A DNA stretch of 32,664 bases, from the UHGV virus genome UHGV-2169520. One strand, written 5' to 3'. A program made the translations under genes and the position numbers. The notes under the pieces were generated by a model. It was not told the origin of the DNA, searched no databases, and saw nothing but the letters and a program-made list of their open reading frames with translations. The DNA comes from a virus. Below are positions 1 through 31,695 of this stretch, one piece after another; the stretch's first letter is position 1, and every line of letters starts with the position of its first letter.

Positions 1-222
1 ATGTTGTTTTCCCTTCGCACCAGCTTTAAAGCCACTCTTGTTAACGATGATGGTACGCCACGGATCACTGCCGAGGTGAGGAATGTGACACCTGATGATA
101 TCGGGAAGGTGGCGGAACTTGTCAGGGATGTTTTTGGTACTCCTTCCGGTACCTGCCGTTCAGACTCTGCGGCCAGGGTTGACAGGCAGGATGTTAACGC
201 CGGGTGGCTTACGCGCCTCTGA
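1..222 (+). CDS. 3' end of an ORF entering from the left edge; product unknown, possibly host gene flanking the prophage junction
   Basis: Frame open from position 1 to TGA 220-222, followed by hairpin 233-247; start not in window; no motif recognised. Confidence 0.25.
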   Translation: MLFSLRTSFKATLVNDDGTPRITAEVRNVTPDDIGKVAELVRDVFGTPSGTCRSDSAARVDRQDVNAGWLTRL

Positions 223-324
223 ATGATGATGCCCTCACTGGTGAGGGTGACAAAAAAGCCCTCTCAATGGCGGGCAAATCTGGTTTTTTGTTTTGTCTCT
301 ACAGGGAAAGGGCGCCATATCGGC

Positions 325-724
325 CCACCCCAACAACCGGATAGCGGGGAATTTCTCCCCCGCTGCGGTTTCTTACGGTTTACACTGCAAGAACGCCGCA
401 AAACGCGCTCCCCAGATATCAAAGCTGAATTCACATAACGAATCGTGGACCATCCAGATGACCAGGGTTATTGTCAGGCATCAAATGCCAACAATAATCG
501 TTTTTTGCGGTATAGCGCTTGCTCCTTTTACAAAGAGGCGCTAACCTTCCACTTGTCACGGTAGGAAGGGTCAGGCCTCGGTTAAACACAGATGTTTTCC
601 GGGGCCTTTCCACATCCGGCCTTCAGGTTTTCCCTCCGGCCATCAGCCGAAAGGCACCCGTTTCTTTTTGTTGCGGCAATATTTCAGGTGTCAGTTGGGG
701 TGGGCTGTATCTTGTCTGATGCAT
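325..724. repeat. Copy 1 of a ~400-bp structured non-coding element (copy 2 at 2333-2745)
   Basis: Alignable with 2333-2745; 3' ~230 bp nearly identical, 5' part diverged; hairpin 343-364 kept by compensatory changes; substitutions in embedded ORFs show no third-position bias. Confidence 0.6.
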
Positions 725-821
725 AAAAAAATGCCCGCGCTTTGGCGGGCAAAAGACAAGACTTTTCGTTTGTATATCATGGATAATGGACACCCTTCCT
801 GTTGTCAGGTGGCAGGCACCC
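725..821 (-). ncRNA. Candidate small RNA unit B1 (body class alpha)
   Basis: Minus-strand -35 TTGAGA (851-856), 17-bp spacer, -10 TAGATT (828-833); terminator GCCCGCC..GGCGGGC plus U7 (725-750); predicted ~95 nt; no credible ORF. Confidence 0.35.
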
Positions 822-925
822 GTGGTTAATCTACTGTTTTTGTGCTTTTGTCTCAACCCTGAAGTTTTCATGGAAAATCAGGGTTGCTTCATATGTGCCA
901 GGAAGGTGCGGCTATGATAACTGCC

Positions 926-1018
926 AAAAAAAGCCCGCTTTCCGGCGGGCAAAACAGCAATGTGAGTTGTCTGTCATTGATACTGGACAGCCTTCCTGTT
1001 GTCAGGTGGAAGGTACCC
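926..1018 (-). ncRNA. Candidate small RNA unit B2 (body class beta)
   Basis: -35 TTGAGA (1048-1053), 17-bp spacer, -10 TAGATT (1025-1030); terminator hairpin 933-950 plus U-run (926-932 on plus strand); 5' hairpin CCUUCC..GGAAGG. Confidence 0.35.
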
Positions 1019-1122
1019 GTGGTTAATCTACTGTCTTTGTGCTTTTGTCTCAACCCTGAAGTTTTCATGGAAAATCAGGGTTGCTTCATGTGAACCAGGA
1101 AGGTGAGGCGATGGTAACCGCC

Positions 1123-1148
1123 AAAAAAATGCCCGCTTTCCGGCGGGC
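1123..1148 (-). terminator. Intrinsic terminator, minus strand
   Basis: Hairpin GCCCGCTTTCCGGCGGGC 1131-1148 preceded on plus strand by A7 (U-tract on minus strand). Confidence 0.6.
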
Positions 1149-1369
1149 AAAACAAGGAAGTACGGATCATGTATTATTGATTACGAGGCATTCCACCATG
1201 CCCACGTTTAATTTAGCTAGTTTTCATTTTATTCACAATATAGTTACTTATCATATTTATGAACAAAACTGTAATTTCATCTATAGGTATAAGTGATTTG
1301 CATTAACATGTTTCTTCTGTATTGCTGTTGGTTTTCCGATGCTGATATTTATGATACATTCAAGGGCAA

Positions 1370-1575
1370 ATGAGGTTGTTCCACAGAAACGATGTTGAGA
1401 TATTTCTGCTCCAGAAAGGACAAGCTAAAAAAATAAAGTGATATTATGATATGTCAGGGATGTTCAGGCATGTCAGTGTCTTATTAATAAACTCGTTGCT
1501 GCTGTAATAACACCAAAAAAATCAAAGCATAATCTGCATGTTGTTCCTGATGACCCAATAACCACAAAAGAATAA
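1370..1575 (+). pseudogene. Decayed copy of the 71-codon ORF family (intact copy at 3197-3412)
   Basis: ATG 1370 opens MRLFHRNDVEI then frame breaks (stop after 23 codons); C-terminal homologous segment ..RDVQACQCLI..HVVPDDPITTKE present out of frame; same flanking AT-rich region and terminator as the intact copy. Confidence 0.55.
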
Positions 1576-1668
1576 AAAAAATGCCCGCTTTCCGGCGGGC
1601 AAAACAGCAATGTGAGTTGTCTGTCATTGATACTGGACACCCTTCCTGTTGTCAGGTGGAAGGCACCC
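1574..1668 (-). ncRNA. Candidate small RNA unit B3 (body class beta)
   Basis: -35 TTGAGC (1698-1703), 17-bp spacer, -10 TAGATT (1675-1680); terminator hairpin 1583-1600 plus U-run. Confidence 0.35.
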
Positions 1669-1772
1669 GTGGTTAATCTACTGTCTTTGTGCTTTTGGCT
1701 CAACCCTGAAGTTTTCATGGAAAATCAGGGCTGCTTTGTGTGCGCCAGGGAAGGCGCCTCGATGGCAGGCGC

Positions 1773-1799
1773 AAAAAAAATGCCCGTGCTTCGGCGGGC
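1773..1799 (-). terminator. Intrinsic terminator, minus strand
   Basis: Hairpin 1782-1799 (one mismatch) preceded on plus strand by A8. Confidence 0.5.
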
Positions 1800-2026
1800 A
1801 AAATAAGGAAGTACAGGTTACATGTTATTGATAAAGTAGCATTGCTCTGTCCGTCTTTAATCTAACGAGTTTTGAGTTTTTTCACAATATTGTTACCTGT
1901 CATGTTATAGATGAAACTGCAATTTCATCTATAGGTATAAATGATTTGTATTAATGTGTGTCCACTGTTTGTCTGCTTTCTGGTTTTCAGTTGACTGTGT
2001 TTCTGATGAATTCAGGAGGTTGTCTT

Positions 2027-2125
2027 ATGAGGCTGTTCCACAGAAACGATATTGAGATTGAACTGCATTTCTCCTCCGGTGAGGATAAGGTTAAATCATT
2101 GTTGATGAAAAAAACAAAGATTTAA
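2027..2125 (+). pseudogene. Truncated copy (32 codons) of the 71-codon ORF family
   Basis: Strong SD AGGAGG 8 nt before ATG 2027; first 24 codons near-identical to 3197-3268 (2 of 3 differences synonymous) then divergence and early stop. Confidence 0.5.
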
Positions 2126-2194
2126 TTTATTGATATAAAGGATTTGTATCAGCGTATGTCCACGCAGTGACCACATTTTCGAGAGGTAGAGTAA

Positions 2195-2220
2195 GCCCGC
2201 AACATTGCGGGCTTTGTCTT
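2195..2220 (+). terminator. Intrinsic terminator, plus strand
   Basis: Hairpin GCCCGCAACATTGCGGGC 2195-2212 followed by TTTGTCTT. Confidence 0.6.
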
Positions 2221-2264
2221 ATAGTCTGATCACTGTTTCAAGTCGGTGAGGACACCAAAAAGAA

Positions 2265-2298
2265 AACCCGCAGTTTTTATGCTGCGGGTTTGTTTGTT
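2265..2298. terminator. Bidirectional hairpin terminator
   Basis: AACCCGCAG..CTGCGGGTT hairpin 2265-2290 with T-rich tract after it on the plus strand and U-rich tract after it on the minus strand. Confidence 0.5.
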
Positions 2299-2332
2299 CA
2301 TGTCTGTGAGATAGGGTGCCTTATCGACCTTA

Positions 2333-2745
2333 CCCTGGCAACCGATTGACGGGGGATTGCTCCCCCGTCGCGGTTTCCTTACTTCTTACATTGTAAGAAC
2401 GCCGCAAACTCCGCTCCCCAGAAGCTCATCCGTATTTCGCACAGCGAACCGTGCAATATCCAGATGATGAGGATTGCCGTCACGCAGAACGTGATGGCCG
2501 TAAGCGATTTTTGCGACATAGCACTTGCTCCTTTTCCGGAGAGGCGCTAACCTTTCACTTGTCAAGGTAATGCGGTTAGGGCCTCGGTTAAACAGAAATG
2601 TTTTCCGGGGCCTTTCCACATCCGGCCTTCAGGTTTTCCCTCCGGCCATCAGCCGAAAGGCACCCGCGCGTAATTTAACTGTTTCTTTTTGTTGCGGCAA
2701 TATTTCAGGTGTCAGTTGGGGTGGGCTGTATCTTGTCTGATGCAT
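2333..2745. repeat. Copy 2 of the ~400-bp structured non-coding element
   Basis: Alignable with 325-724; hairpin 2348-2369 GACGGGGGA-TTGC-TCCCCCGTC; 15-bp insertion relative to copy 1. Confidence 0.6.
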
Positions 2746-2841
2746 AAAAAAATGCCCGCGCTTCGGCGGGCAAAAAACAAGACTTTTCGTTTGTATATCA
2801 TGGATAATGGACACCCTTCCTGTTGTCAGGGGGAGGTACCC
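2746..2841 (-). ncRNA. Candidate small RNA unit B4 (body class alpha)
   Basis: -35 TTGAGC (2871-2876), 17-bp spacer, -10 TAGATT (2848-2853); terminator hairpin 2754-2771 plus U-run. Confidence 0.35.
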
Positions 2842-2945
2842 GTAGCTAATCTACTCACTTTGTGCCCGCAGCTCAACCCTGAAGTTTTCATGGAAAATCA
2901 GGGCTGCTTTGTGTGCGCCAGGGAAGGCGCCTCGATGGCAGGCGC

Positions 2946-2972
2946 AAAAAAAATGCCCGCTCTCCGGCGGGC
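2946..2972 (-). terminator. Intrinsic terminator, minus strand
   Basis: Hairpin GCCCGCTCTCCGGCGGGC 2955-2972 preceded on plus strand by A8. Confidence 0.6.
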
Positions 2973-3196
2973 AAAACAATGATCTACGTCACATTATATT
3001 GATAACCGGGCATTCCTCCATGCCCATTTTTAATTTAGCCATTTTTCATTTTGTTCACAATATAGTTATCTATCATATTCATGAATGAAATTATAATTTC
3101 ATCTATAGGTATAAATGATTTGTGTTAATATGTTTCTCCTGTCTAACTGTTTTCTCATTTTTCGATACTAGTATTTCTGATATATTCAGGGGGCGT

Positions 3197-3412
3197 ATGA
3201 GATTGTTCCGAAGAAACGATATTGAGATTGAACTGCATTTCTCCTCCGGTGAGGATAAGGTTAAATCAATAAAGGTGAAACTAAGACATGCCCGGGATGT
3301 TCAGGCGTGTCAGTGTCTTATTGATGAACTCGTTGCTGCCGGAGGAACGCCAAAAAAACAAAAATATAATCTGCACGTGGTTCCTGATGACCCCATAACC
3401 ACAAAAGAATAA
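3197..3412 (+). CDS. Small hydrophilic protein (71 aa), function unknown; only intact member of a three-copy family
   Basis: ATG 3197 with G-rich SD; MRLFRRNDIEIELHFSSGEDKVKSIKVKL..; convergent with ogr; AT-rich upstream region with conserved hairpin 3008-3036. Confidence 0.6.
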   Translation: MRLFRRNDIEIELHFSSGEDKVKSIKVKLRHARDVQACQCLIDELVAAGGTPKKQKYNLHVVPDDPITTKE

Positions 3413-3505
3413 AAAAATGCCCGCTTTCCGGCGGGCAAAAAACAATTTAGGTCATATTTCATCATGGATAATTAAATACTTGCCCGTGGTTGCGGGAAAG
3501 TATCT
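3411..3505 (-). ncRNA. Candidate small RNA unit B5 (body class gamma), immediately downstream of ogr
   Basis: -35 TTGAGA (3535-3540) starts 15 bp after ogr stop; 17-bp spacer; -10 TAGATT (3512-3517); terminator hairpin 3419-3436 plus U7; also the likely terminator for ogr. Confidence 0.35.
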
Positions 3506-3554
3506 GCCGTTAATCTACTTGCCTTATGATGTCCTCTCAACCTGATTATTGTTC

Positions 3555-3806
3555 TTAAATATCAAGATTAATCTGAGTATTCCCCCTGTGAGATCCCGGA
3601 AAATCTTCCCACGGTATCCGCTCTGTACCCTGCGGCGACGGGGCGCGTTTTGATGTGAATTTGTTAAAACCCTCCAGTGTGGTAAAGCCGATCCCGCATT
3701 CGAGGTTATTGCACTGGTAGTACTTCAGGCGAACTGTGCCTGAATCATTTTCATTGCGACTGGTGCGGATACGTGCGGATGCACCGCATAGGGGACAACG
3801 GAACAT
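3555..3806 (-). CDS. ogr: Ogr/Delta-family zinc-finger late-gene activator
   Basis: MFRCPLCGASARIRTSR...YYQCNNLECG: C-x2-C...C-x4-C zinc finger matching P2 Ogr; SD AGGAGA 4 nt before ATG. Confidence 0.9.
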   Translation of the reverse strand: MFRCPLCGASARIRTSRNENDSGTVRLKYYQCNNLECGIGFTTLEGFNKFTSKRAPSPQGTERIPWEDFPGSHRGNTQINLDI

Positions 3807-3849
3807 GGCTTCTCCTTATCTGGCTGAGTGGAGATGGCTCATTTTAATT

Positions 3850-4941
3850 TTATCCGCCTGAATCTGCTATCCATTCGGGGATTTTCGCTTCCAGCTCCAG
3901 TTGTGTGGTGAAGCCGCTTTCATCTATGATGTGCTCCACCCTGGCAATAATCCAGTCCTGATTGTCCACCTCGCTTTTAAAACCTGTTACCCTGCCGTGC
4001 ATTTCGGGGTACAGGTCGGCACGACCCCGTGCCAGAGTGATGGAGAATGCCGCTGCTCCCCGCTGTAACTCCTGCCACTTTGCCGCAGCTGCACGTCGTG
4101 CGGTTTCTTCATTCTGGTAAGTCCTGCGCAGAACGTAGACGTTCCCTTCCGCGCCTTCCATGTAATCACCCTCCCGGCTGCTGCTCTTCTCCTGTTTCTG
4201 TTTCCCGGCTTCCCTGCGTCGCTTCACGTTCACTTTTTTCTTTTGCCCGAACTTCAGATCGAGCCAGTGCGCCCGGACCCCCGTATACGCATCACGGTCA
4301 GCAATGCGAAAGCGGTGACTGTCGCCGCTGCTGCGGGTAATGGCGAACGAAGGCAGGGCTCTTCCGTCCGGCCCGGTTCCGCCACCCGGCAGAATGAATA
4401 ACAGGCTGCCGTTTTTTACGGTGGCAATCGCACCCAGCATTTCAGCCATGCGGGTCAGGAAGGATATATCGCTCTCTTCGGTCTGGTCAGCGTGGTCAAT
4501 TTCGATATCCATGAGGATTTCGCTTATCTGTGTCTTCAGGCCGTAGCGGTGAGCGATGGCTGACACAACCTGTTTTACGGTCACGTCGTGCCAGGATACC
4601 TCCCGCCTCACGTTGAACTCTTCCCGAAAATCTGCGCTGCTGGCGGTGATGATCAGTTTATCTGGAGGTCCTTCCCACGCAACCTCATCAACGACGTAGG
4701 TGCCCTTGTTAACCAGTGATTCTCCTCGCCAGCCAATCATCACTCTCAGGCGTGCGCCACGTGGTGGCAACTGTAACTGCCCGTCCGTATCGTCAAGGGT
4801 GAGGGTGACGCGGTCTGCCTCAAAGGCCCGGTTATCCGTCAGGGTCAGCGTCATGAGTCGCTCTGTGAGGTTTGCCAGTGTGTTGTTGTTGATGGTGATG
4901 TCGATATCCGGTGACGGAACGGTAACTGACAGCTCTTTCAT
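3850..4941 (-). CDS. D: Tail protein D
   Basis: P2 gpD-like over full length; start set at ATG 4941 (SD AGGAGAG) rather than the ORF-track start 4977, which lacks an SD. Confidence 0.85.
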   Translation of the reverse strand: MKELSVTVPSPDIDITINNNTLANLTERLMTLTLTDNRAFEADRVTLTLDDTDGQLQLPPRGARLRVMIGWRGESLVNKGTYVVDEVAWEGPPDKLIITASSADFREEFNVRREVSWHDVTVKQVVSAIAHRYGLKTQISEILMDIEIDHADQTEESDISFLTRMAEMLGAIATVKNGSLLFILPGGGTGPDGRALPSFAITRSSGDSHRFRIADRDAYTGVRAHWLDLKFGQKKKVNVKRRREAGKQKQEKSSSREGDYMEGAEGNVYVLRRTYQNEETARRAAAAKWQELQRGAAAFSITLARGRADLYPEMHGRVTGFKSEVDNQDWIIARVEHIIDESGFTTQLELEAKIPEWIADSGG

Positions 4942-11876: not shown

Positions 11877-14119
11877 TAAACTGCCCTCACAATATAATTA
11901 AAAGCGATATTGCGCGGTCTGATCGCTATCCATCTGTCTTTTTCATTACTCACCAGCTTACCGGCTCTGGCTATTGCCCATCTGTCAACTGGTTTTGTGC
12001 CGTACAGGATGCCGTTACCGGTTCTGGGTTGATCAGGGGTTATGTTTATGATGTCGTTATCATGTGATGCAAATGAAATCCCTGCCTGAATATCTGCACC
12101 TCCCGCTACGCCGTGGTACGCCTGTATGGCGGTACAAATATATGTTGCTTCCTGTGTGGATAACAATAAGCGTCCCCTGTCAATCATTCGCAGGNNNNNN
12201 NNNNCATCCCATCCACGAATAAATTCCCCGCGCAAATCTGGTAGCCTGAGGTCAGGGTAGGCCACCGCCAGTTTTGGGTATTTTGTACGCGTGAATGCGG
12301 CACCGTTGCACTGTAACCACCCCTCAGGTGGTCTTGACGAAGGCCACGGAACGGGTACGCCAACTGGCAGCGTCGAGCCTTCTCCTAAACCAAAGTAATC
12401 AAGAATATCTTTTATGCTTTGTTTACCCATGATGACGCGGGCAACAGACGAAAAAACAGGGGCGTCTGTGATCTGAGCCCAGCGATGAGTGTGGGCTGCC
12501 GAGGCTTTGCTGTTGGCAAGGTCATACGCAGCTTTAACAGCTTTTGGTGTGGCCGCCAGCGTTTCGGAATTGCTGTTTGTGGCGCTGCTTAGCTGTACGA
12601 TGCCTTTGCGTCCGGTGGTTGCATCCTGTCCTGTATACTTGCTCGTCAGCATATCGTGTAAGGCTTTAACCGCTTTGGGGGTGGCGGCCTCAGTCTCTGA
12701 CTCACTGTTTGTGGCACTGCTCAGCTGTACGGTGCCTTTTGCCGTCAGCGAGGCTGATGGCACNNNNNNNNNNNNNNNNNNNNNNNNNNNNNNNNNNNNN
12801 NNNNNNNNNNNNNNNNNNNNNNNNNNNNNNNNNNNNNNNNNNNNNNNTGTGGCCGCCAGCGTTTCGGAATTGCTGTTTGTATCGCTGCTCAGCTGTACGA
12901 TGCCTTTGCGTCCAGTTGTTGCATCTGTGTTTGTCACCTCCACCCACTCTGACCATGGGCCGTTACCGTTAAAGTTTCCGGTAACTGTCCTGATAAATTT
13001 TCGTGGCGGATCCCAGCTCGTGTATTCATGCTGGCAGAATCCCCATGCACCAACACGGATGCGTAACTCTCCTGCCTTCTCTACAGGATAGTTTCTGTCT
13101 GTTCTCGCACCTGAGTCACTCTGCTGGTAATAATCTCCCGCGTCTTCCTTACGCCCCAGAGTGTTCAGGTCTGTTTCCCCCAGGGATGTTGTTGGCTTCA
13201 CGAACGCCATGCTCAGTGCATCACTTACTGCCTTCGGTGTGGCCGCCAGTGTTTCGGAATTGCTGTTTGTGGCGCTGCTCAGCTGTACGATGCCTTTGCG
13301 TCCGGTGGTTGCATCCTGTCCTGTATACTTGCTCGTCACCATATCGTGTAAGGCTTTAACCGCTTTGGGGGTGGCCGCCTCAGTCTCTGACTCACTGTTT
13401 GTGGCACTGCTCAGCTGTACGGTGCCTTTTGCCGTCAGCGAGGCTGATGGCACACCAGTTATCTGATTCCACGGGTGGGTGTGGCTGGCGGGTGCTTTAC
13501 CGGCTGCAAGGTCATATGCAGCCTTGACGGCCTTCGGTGTGGCGGCCAGTGTTTCAGAGGTGCTGTTTGTGGCGCTGCTCAGTTGGGTGAATCCTTTTTC
13601 TGTCAGTGTCGCGTCAGGGTGGTTACGGGAACGTGCGTGTTCCGCTATTTTCTCATCAATGTAGTCCGTGGTCGGCAGAATTGTTGTTGTGTCCATGACC
13701 AGTTCCACCACGGCGTCGGAGGTGACGGTGATTACTGCACGGAATATCTGCGCCCGCCCTGAACCTTCCTCTCTGGTGGGCTTGTAACTTTCAGCGGTAT
13801 TTCCTACTGCAATCATTGTACCTGTATCATCAAACACACCAATTTCACGCACCCAGAATCCGCCGGTTTCAGGAGGAATGACCAGTTCGGCGATGAGGCG
13901 GTTCGGGTTCTCCGGGTCGGTGAAGACGCGGTTGACAGACTGGCGCCAAACCTCATTGTAAAGCGATGTCTGGTTTTTCTGCGGCTGACGAAGCTCTCCA
14001 TTGCCGTCCCCTACAGCCATGTGCGTAAGGCGTACAGGTCTACCGCCAGGCGCCGTTGTTGCGGCCAGCTTTGCCAGCCCGATGTCGGTGATAAGGGTTC
14101 TGAATTTTCTCGTGCTCAT
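11876..14119 (-). CDS. H: Tail fibre protein; interrupted by two N gaps, internal repeats
   Basis: N-terminus MSTRKFRTLITDIGLAKLAA.. matches P2 gpH; repeated ..ATTGRKGIVQLSSATNSNSETLAATPKAVK.. blocks; C-terminal PDLRGEFIRGWD motif; N runs 12195-12204 and 12764-12847. Confidence 0.85.
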   Translation of the reverse strand: MSTRKFRTLITDIGLAKLAATTAPGGRPVRLTHMAVGDGNGELRQPQKNQTSLYNEVWRQSVNRVFTDPENPNRLIAELVIPPETGGFWVREIGVFDDTGTMIAVGNTAESYKPTREEGSGRAQIFRAVITVTSDAVVELVMDTTTILPTTDYIDEKIAEHARSRNHPDATLTEKGFTQLSSATNSTSETLAATPKAVKAAYDLAAGKAPASHTHPWNQITGVPSASLTAKGTVQLSSATNSESETEAATPKAVKALHDMVTSKYTGQDATTGRKGIVQLSSATNSNSETLAATPKAVSDALSMAFVKPTTSLGETDLNTLGRKEDAGDYYQQSDSGARTDRNYPVEKAGELRIRVGAWGFCQHEYTSWDPPRKFIRTVTGNFNGNGPWSEWVEVTNTDATTGRKGIVQLSSDTNSNSETLAATXXXXXXXXXXXXXXXXXXXXXXXXXXXXVPSASLTAKGTVQLSSATNSESETEAATPKAVKALHDMLTSKYTGQDATTGRKGIVQLSSATNSNSETLAATPKAVKAAYDLANSKASAAHTHRWAQITDAPVFSSVARVIMGKQSIKDILDYFGLGEGSTLPVGVPVPWPSSRPPEGWLQCNGAAFTRTKYPKLAVAYPDLRLPDLRGEFIRGWDXXXXLRMIDRGRLLLSTQEATYICTAIQAYHGVAGGADIQAGISFASHDNDIINITPDQPRTGNGILYGTKPVDRWAIARAGKLVSNEKDRWIAIRPRNIAFNYIVRAV
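12195..12204. other. Assembly gap (10 N) inside tail fibre gene H
   Basis: Run of N. Confidence 0.95.
12764..12847. other. Assembly gap (84 N) inside tail fibre gene H, within the repeated block
   Basis: Run of N flanked by near-identical repeat copies. Confidence 0.95.
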
Positions 14120-31419: not shown

Positions 31420-31459
31420 AGGTTGCAATTCTGGGTGGCGAGACGTACAGGGTTGCAAC
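31420..31459. promoter_or_regulatory. Palindromic GGTTGCAA motifs upstream of the early operon (candidate operators)
   Basis: CCAGA-GGTTGCAAT-TCTGG at 31415-31433 and perfect palindrome GGTTGCAACC at 31450-31459, 30 bp apart; third GGTTGCAA at 31597-31604. Confidence 0.4.
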
Positions 31460-31553
31460 CACCGGCAAACGAAGAAACCGGCCCGACCGAAGTCGGCCCC
31501 GTACGCCCCACCATAATTCTGGTGCGAAAAAGACGTGGCGATACGGTACGCAC

Positions 31554-31573
31554 AAAAAAACCGCTGGCGCGGT
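31554..31573 (-). terminator. Intrinsic terminator, minus strand, downstream of the HTH-protein gene
   Basis: Hairpin ACCGC-TGGC-GCGGT (31560-31573) preceded on plus strand by A7. Confidence 0.55.
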
Positions 31574-31695
31574 TGTGCGCTTCGTTTGTCAGCGGGGGTT
31601 GCAATCCCGGCACCCGTTTTATGAGGTGCAGCGGAAATGTAACCTGACTGATTGCGGCATGGCAAGCGGTTTTTTTGTGTGTGCATAGTGGTTAC

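Follow-up and report, generated by a model that had tools for sequence, protein, structure and literature searches.

Short RNAs with their own promoter and Rho-independent terminator are found as accessory cargo of temperate phages, for instance AgvB and AsxR of enterohaemorrhagic Escherichia coli, IsrK, DicF and IpeX. In enterobacterial small RNAs (sRNAs) the Hfq-binding module consists of a U-rich tract together with a terminator hairpin followed by at least seven U residues. The clustered or tandem paralogues OmrA/OmrB, Qrr1-5 and Listeria LhrC1-5 keep their ends, promoter region and terminator while an internal segment differs. An sRNA gene immediately next to ogr at a P2-type end is found in E. 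coli K-12, where cyaR lies beside the P2 relic ogrK-yegZ, and in P2-like phages the cargo genes usually reported between ogr and the attachment site (att) are hok, methyltransferase genes and the like. The present analysis concerns this region in the UHGV virus genome UHGV-2169520, a stretch of 32,664 nucleotides referred to below as the window, where eight promoter-body-terminator units are located, on the minus strand only, between positions 725 and 3540. They are tentatively read here as a new family of sRNA genes.

The likeness of the units to the phage RNAs named above lies in the predicted short RNA with its own promoter and Rho-independent terminator and in the location within accessory cargo; moreover, the same prophage has an isrK-like RNA and a C4 RNA at Rfam gathering scores, as in prophage-sRNA systems. 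They differ from the known prophage Hfq-binding sRNAs in that no sequence or structure match exists, and in that eight copies of four classes are gathered in one 3-kb block with a single type of promoter and terminator. OmrA/OmrB, Qrr1-5 and LhrC1-5 are chromosomal and have a conserved seed, whereas in the units the bodies are the most variable part and only a 9-nt stretch behind the 5′ hairpin is common. cyaR, finally, is a host gene convergent with ogrK whose terminator carries the att core, whereas the units belong to the phage, run in the direction of ogr and lie apart from the core.

All eight promoters fall within 828-3540 and share the architecture TTG(A/T)G(A/C)-17 bp-TA(G/A)ATT, each about 105-115 nt upstream of one terminator. 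The motif TTGWGM-N17-TARATT matches eight times in 32.6 kb, once per terminator, as compared to 0.04 matches expected by chance. Five of these units had been described in the original prediction and are real: the pattern GGTTGAG-N18-TAGATT-N60-90-TGCCCGCC yields exactly five matches, all on the minus strand (744-858, 944-1055, 1594-1705, 2765-2878 and 3430-3542), and none in shuffled windows. The true count is nevertheless eight, three units denoted delta having been missed. A generic promoter scan recovered the three TTGAGA-17-TAGATT copies, while the two TTGAGC copies, at 8/12, stayed under its cut-off.

In a terminator scan eight sites were found on the minus strand, the number originally given for the repeat, where 4.8 terminator-like sites would be expected on both strands. 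The stem is not GCCCGCC/GGCGGGC as first described, being instead (U)GCCCGC/GCGGGC(A), with 6-7 bp, a 6-nt loop and 7-8 U residues behind it in 8/8 units. The loop occurs in six forms (CGGAAA, CAAAGC, CGAAGC, CGTTGC, CGGAGA and CAGAAG) around a constant stem, the sole change of which is from G-C to G-U. In each unit (U)UUUUGCCCGC-loop-GCGGGC(A) with its 7-8 U is preceded by a U-rich tract, and the sequence thus has the elements of the Hfq-binding module described above. Within the promoters, the mean pairwise identity of six lineages is 0.88 for the hexamers and 0.46 for spacer plus discriminator, and of 20000 sets of 12 columns drawn at random only 3 reached the hexamer value. The earlier argument that hexamers kept beside varying spacers indicate selection is borne out by these numbers, which support the view that selection acts on the promoter hexamers.

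The unit closest to ogr is B5 (gamma, 3411-3540), with -35 TTGAGA, -10 TAGATT, a predicted 5′ end at ~3505 and the terminator at 3418-3437. Its -35 hexamer begins 14 nt past the ogr stop codon, so that B5 does adjoin ogr as had been noted. In 22 of 24 fetched copies B5 is identical, and the remaining two differ by a single U in the tail. It is followed by delta1 (2946-3060; -35 TTGTGA 3055-3060, -10 TAAATT 3032-3037, terminator 2954-2973), in which the predicted +1 G at 3025 opens the hairpin GGGCAUGGAGGAAUGCCC, and by B4 (alpha′, 2746-2876; -35 TTGAGC, a differing spacer, -10 TAGATT, predicted +1 ~2841, terminator 2753-2772). Further along the strand are located delta2 (1774-1887; -35 TTGTGA, -10 TAGATT, predicted +1 G 1852, terminator 1781-1800) and B3 (beta, 1574-1703; -35 TTGAGC, -10 TAGATT, predicted +1 ~1668, terminator 1582-1601). 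The array ends with delta3 (1124-1238; -35 TTGTGA 1233-1238, -10 TAAATT 1210-1215, terminator 1130-1149), whose predicted +1 G at 1203 opens the hairpin GGGCAUGGUGGAAUGCC, B2 (beta, 926-1053; -35 TTGAGA 1048-1053, -10 TAGATT 1025-1030, predicted +1 ~1018, terminator 933-950) and B1 (alpha, 725-856; -35 TTGAGA 851-856, -10 TAGATT 828-833, predicted +1 G ~821, terminator stem 732-751, U-tail 725-731).

The bodies fall into four classes, alpha (B1 and B4), beta (B2 and B3), gamma (B5) and delta (three copies); the first three, confirmed by alignment, correspond to the classes proposed originally, while the fourth had escaped notice. Common to all four is the stretch UAUC(C/A)AU(G/A)A right after the 5′ hairpin. 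In the predicted folds of the first five units a hairpin at the 5′ end is followed by an unpaired, A/U-rich middle and then by the terminator, in agreement with the original description; in B1, for example, the hairpin is followed by the stretch UUAUCCAUGAU. The 5′ hairpin is retained in alpha, beta, beta′, gamma, delta1 and delta3 although their sequences differ. In beta′, the variant found in strain CM2, five substitutions in the stem of this hairpin still leave a good fold (z = -2.5), and RNAalifold recovers both hairpin and terminator. A coding function of the units was rejected, as the open reading frames (ORFs) crossing them read the common terminator in differing frames and extend beyond the RNA 3′ end; the units are without a conserved encoded peptide.

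We favour, at a little short of even confidence, the reading that the eight units are a new family of prophage-borne, Hfq-type base-pairing sRNA genes expressed from the prophage, because their predicted anatomy matches that of a textbook enterobacterial Hfq-binding sRNA. Each unit would be a self-contained gene for a non-coding RNA of about 80-100 nt, driven by a putative hok-type sigma-70 promoter (TTGnGn, a spacer of exactly 17 bp, TA(G/A)ATT, 6 nt, +1 G). The RNA would comprise a 5′ hairpin at or next to the +1 position, an open A/U stretch starting with UAUC(C/A)AU(G/A)A, the U-rich tract, the GC hairpin and 7-8 U residues. From this layout we infer transcription in the lysogen, binding of Hfq through the U-rich tract and the terminator, and regulation in trans, in which the open middle would pair with host or rival-phage transcripts and different bodies would address different target sets. 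The units could then be regarded as RNA 'morons' of a P2-like phage, of which a single phage right end carries three to four.

Several observations weigh against this assignment. Agreement of the promoters with the consensus is limited to 8-9 of 12 positions, and for the delta promoters there is a mild ascertainment bias, as the search pattern that revealed them had been built from the other five units. Fold z-scores are modest (-1.3 to -2.7), and the 5′ hairpin of delta2, probably a decaying copy, is lost. Compensatory double changes are seen in just 2 of 19 predicted pairs, a paucity owed to the shallowness of the family, which comprises about 13 sequence variants, from E. coli only, in 31 of 5426 complete genomes; a recent origin could thus account for much of the conservation. 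Finally, no target stood out: shuffled RNAs paired equally well with the remainder of the prophage and with hok, sok, ORF71 and p73, and the pairing of beta with sodB was likewise at the level of shuffled RNAs.

As to known RNAs, Rfam searches of the window and its sub-regions in gathering and E-value modes assigned no family at threshold to the units, with no gathering-level match in 1-4200, so that, as the original prediction required, no known repeat or RNA family claims them. The best partial scores were 24.4 against a threshold of 55 for RyhB (RF00057), 23.2 against 56 for AgvB (RF02702) and 26.1 against 50 for rseX (RF01401), and they are owed mostly to the terminator. The beta body (B3 at 1604-1614 on the minus strand, and also B2) contains CUCACAUUGCU, 11 nt identical to the RyhB core, which gives rise to the 24-bit sub-threshold Rfam score. 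Beta as a RyhB mimic was rejected: against the sodB leader it performs no better than shuffled sequences (148/300), as compared to 9/300 for RyhB itself. Pattern scans of IMG/VR, GTDB representatives and metagenomes, a terminator-only scan and ORF71-based locus searches gave no more divergent relatives, all matches being either nearly identical copies from E. coli or unrelated and due to chance, and a BLAST search of E. coli genomes with the alpha antisense 31-mer found only the units themselves. Literature searches retrieved no description of these units.

Several E. coli chromosomes, the majority of them chicken-derived, match the first 4 kb of the window at 100% identity, and the window represents a P2-like prophage with its insertion site between serS and dmsA. 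The eight-unit region is placed between ogr, the final conserved phage gene, and attR, which lies just past window position 1. The gene ogr (3555-3806, minus strand) encodes an Ogr/Delta zinc finger protein (Pfam Ogr_Delta) and marks the right end of the prophage, whereas p73 (1-222, plus strand), coding for a hypothetical protein of 73 amino acids, adjoins attR. The same block from ogr to attR, including its units, occurs at three chromosomal sites, serS, zapB and copA: in strain SCU-115 it lies beside zapB with the same arm and core as at serS, and in strain CM2 beside copA with a different arm. The units therefore travel with the phage. Originally only B5 had been considered phage-borne; it is, and so is the whole ~3.5 kb ogr-attR region with all units, which is phage cargo. 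A minimal version is present in CM2, where one unit of each of the four classes (gamma, delta, beta′ and alpha) is accompanied by ORF71 and p73 but hok is missing. Among complete E. coli genomes the block is rare, being carried by 31 of 5426, in none of which the units are annotated, and neither deposited phage genomes nor the representative genomes of other species contain it. In raw E. coli assemblies it is common, the exact ORF71 protein being indexed in 2495 blocks.

The repeated terminator had been put forward as an att core in the manner of P2 and cyaR, which would make the copies traces of successive integrations. The precedent itself holds, as the cyaR gene of K-12 (2167114-2167200) overlaps with its 3′ end the P2-like relic PR-X, a cryptic prophage with ogrK and yegZ. 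Furthermore, other P2-like viral contigs from IMG/VR carry AACAAGGAACTTTTGCCCGCAGACTTGCGGGCTTTTTTT at both ends beside integrase arm repeats, and in those phages a terminator of similar shape is probably the att core. For the prophage studied here the idea is refuted, and we assign it a vanishingly small probability. The core common to both prophage ends is AAAGCGCCCGCAGG, positioned on the serS terminator and flanked at both ends by the integrase arm-type repeats ATGGACAnnnTnTGGACAC, and the zapB site has the same core and arm. The comparison of the locus with and without the prophage, proposed at the outset for placing the cores, gives the same answer: when the outer flanks are joined in silico, at least 5074 of 5426 E. 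coli genomes contain the resulting sequence uninterrupted and at 100% identity, and this empty site is without any family-type GCCCGC-N6-GCGGGC terminator. AAAGCGCCCGCAGG was not found anywhere inside the unit array, and the only internal junction (~2093-2110) belongs to a different, flk-type site.

The hok-type nature of the promoters, not recognised in the original prediction, follows from comparison with the hok loci of the window. An intact hok/sok locus is located at 2257-2700 (minus strand), with the promoter TTGCCG-17-TAAATT-acgcgc-G at 2665-2700 and the Hok coding sequence at 2379-2519, and a decayed copy at 258-660 (minus strand), in which the leader occupies 502-659, the -10 element is deleted and the reading frame is broken; a ninth, degenerate family-type terminator (258-275, minus strand) forms the end of this copy. 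The enrichment of hok in prophages has been noted in a survey (10.1101/2025.08.07.668861). The hok promoter and the units have in common the architecture TTGnnn-17-TA(A/G)ATT-6-G, and in phages P88 and Chuche a hok promoter TTGCCG-17-TAGATT directly follows ogr, i.e. it occupies the position of gamma in the window. Alpha and beta begin with GGGUGCCUU like the hok mRNA, while gamma and delta are without hok 5′ sequence. B1 and B3 align in register to the hok promoter and 5′ end (z ~4.8 versus shuffles). This resemblance ends 10-20 nt into the transcribed part; beyond the promoter and this short segment, in the 3′ halves, no similarity to the hok 3′ end is seen. In contrast to hok, the units lack both a Hok reading frame and a leader complementary to Sok and have a different terminator, they do not pair with the sok region above chance, and the two genuine hok loci are separate from them. 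The candidate explanation as 'mini-hok', internally deleted hok mRNAs, was rejected, as promoter and 5′ end are significant and the 3′ half is not. We conclude from these alignments that the units make renewed use of a hok-type promoter without being hok relics in their entirety.

The organisation of the array indicates that it grew as right ends of related phages were stacked and recombined, an aspect likewise missed originally. Region 2100-2300 corresponds to the canonical right end of flk-adjacent P2-like prophages in other strains, consisting of the hok terminator and the arm repeats ATGTGGTCActgcGTGGACA. In the window this internal relic (2093-2176, minus strand) carries the integrase arm-type repeats ATGTGGTCActgcGTGGACA at 2157-2176 and joins a truncated ORF71 copy at ~2093-2110, where the sequence resembles a flk-type core; one phage thus seems to have integrated at a secondary site inside a cargo gene of another. 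Since a flk-type right end is fused to truncated ORF71, the array can be described as two stacked right ends, that of one phage (gamma, ORF71, delta1, alpha′ and hok) lying on the truncated right end of another, to which delta2, beta, the ORF71 relic, delta3, beta, alpha, the hok relic and p73 belong. In SCU-115 the array is shorter by one recombination between identical ~90-bp stretches upstream of B4 and B3. The multiplicity of the units thus partly reflects stacked right ends of related phages.

Such a history raises the alternative that the units are debris, i.e. duplicated and partly deleted fragments of hok-type promoters and terminators from stacked P2-like right ends that look conserved since they are young. 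The array does contain clear relics, namely the decayed hok copy, two decayed ORF71 copies and the integrase-arm relic joined to truncated ORF71, and the promoter architecture in common with hok, the shallowness of a family confined to a single phage lineage and the lost hairpin of delta2 would all be accounted for. Against this alternative, classes that are only ~46% identical in the promoter spacer still keep the hexamers, the exact 17 bp, the +1 G, the 5′ hairpin and the terminator stem, and all four classes are already present, with one unit each, in the minimal single-phage version of CM2. Decay has struck the protein genes in the older part of the array (the hok relic and two ORF71 relics), while all five units in the same DNA keep promoter and terminator, and a derivation from hok does not extend to the 3′ halves. 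On balance we consider the debris explanation unlikely.

A local function has to be weighed more closely, as some units are arranged head-on to protein genes. ORF71 (3197-3412, plus strand; 71 amino acids, WP_001236182.1) is a near-orphan situated between delta1, from which it diverges, and gamma, towards which it converges; decayed copies of it are found at 1370-1580 and 2027-2105. The U-tail of gamma overlaps the ORF71 stop codon, the U-tail of B3 adjoins the 3′ end of a decayed ORF71 copy in like manner, and in CM2 the alpha unit is convergent with p73 and adjoins its stop codon. None of the eight hairpins scores as a plus-strand terminator, and behind ORF71 the plus strand has no terminator before the next terminator-like site at 3724. 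Transcription of ORF71 and p73, neither of which has its own terminator, would hence continue into the units and yield mRNAs antisense to them. On this basis the units may act locally and not in trans, as convergent antisense RNAs and transcriptional insulators for ORF71, p73 and hok. Their terminators would halt transcription from the late operon or from upstream before its antisense entry into the cargo genes, and the ORF71 and p73 mRNAs running through the units would be fully complementary to them, resembling a type I toxin-antitoxin system with 3′ overlap. Such a role would also suit the positions of the alpha units directly upstream of both hok copies (B4 next to the intact locus) and the divergent arrangement of delta and ORF71 around an 18-bp palindrome.

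The geometry of ORF71 and gamma, with the stop codon under the U-tail and no plus-strand terminator, fits a convergent type I pair, but ORF71 is without toxin-like features. It is a soluble, charged protein with no toxin signature, and no PADLOC, Pfam or NCBIfam match was obtained. The only related proteins, of ~130 residues, belong to phrog_14142, a group of unknown function, and the relationship is confined to their C-terminal half. Its AlphaFold model (predicted local distance difference test score of 76) consists of three strands, a helix and a further strand and has no match in the PDB at E < 0.001. In addition, B1, B2, B4 and the delta units are convergent with no intact gene in the window, a pure insulator could do without a promoter, whereas in the units it is the promoter that is conserved best, and complementarity in trans to the ORF71, hok and p73 leaders is not above chance. 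An exclusively local function is somewhat improbable in our estimation, while a local role remains a serious rival or an additional role. If the units are sRNA genes as favoured here, those lying head-on to ORF71 or p73 may additionally serve as antisense RNAs and terminator shields.

Two palindromes are associated with the promoters. The first, of 33 bp (CAACCCTGA-N15-TCAGGGTTG), overlaps the -35 element of the alpha and beta units (854-886 in B1, 1051-1083 in B2, 1701-1733 in B3 and 2874-2906 in B4), is absent from gamma and delta and has no further copy in the window; its appearance is that of an operator. The second is the perfect 18-bp palindrome ATGAAATTATAATTTCAT (3085-3102) between the delta1 and ORF71 promoters, of which a 28-bp imperfect version is located at 1906-1933. 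Both suggest control by DNA-binding proteins.

A further, quite speculative extension of the sRNA reading, which we consider distinctly improbable, is that of modular cassettes. A fixed hok-derived promoter and a fixed terminator would enclose interchangeable bodies, the ends would serve as recombination joints for swapping, stacking and diversifying the bodies between P2-like phages, and the bodies would mimic host sRNA seeds, e.g. CUCACAUUGCU of beta and the RyhB core, in order to rewire the lysogen or to hinder rival phages.

If the units are transcribed, they constitute an undescribed family of prophage sRNAs in poultry- and human-associated E. coli, unusual in that eight genes of four classes are packed into 3 kb of P2-like ogr-att cargo. 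RNA genes would thereby join the gifts of temperate phages to their hosts, and the locus would offer a tractable case of sRNA birth, by re-use of a toxin-gene promoter and a common terminator, and of multiplication via recombination between phages. The att analysis further illustrates that terminator repeats are not to be read as att sites without comparing both prophage ends.

Some minor observations concern related sequences and the remainder of the prophage. In contig L010 the end of an IS10 element is located just upstream of a beta promoter (1-100), and in contig L021 an IS1 element lies inside a truncated ORF71 copy (13750-13981). Six soil metagenome contigs that match the unit pattern have a conserved stretch of ~180 nt in common which is unrelated to the unit family; the match is due to chance and falls inside some conserved soil-bacterial element. 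In the early region of the window (31431-31629, minus strand) a C4 antisense RNA (79 bits) is found beside the isrK-like RNA (62 bits), both at Rfam gathering level. The pair is located upstream of a gene annotated as 'derepression protein' and looks like an antirepressor control module of a P2-like phage.

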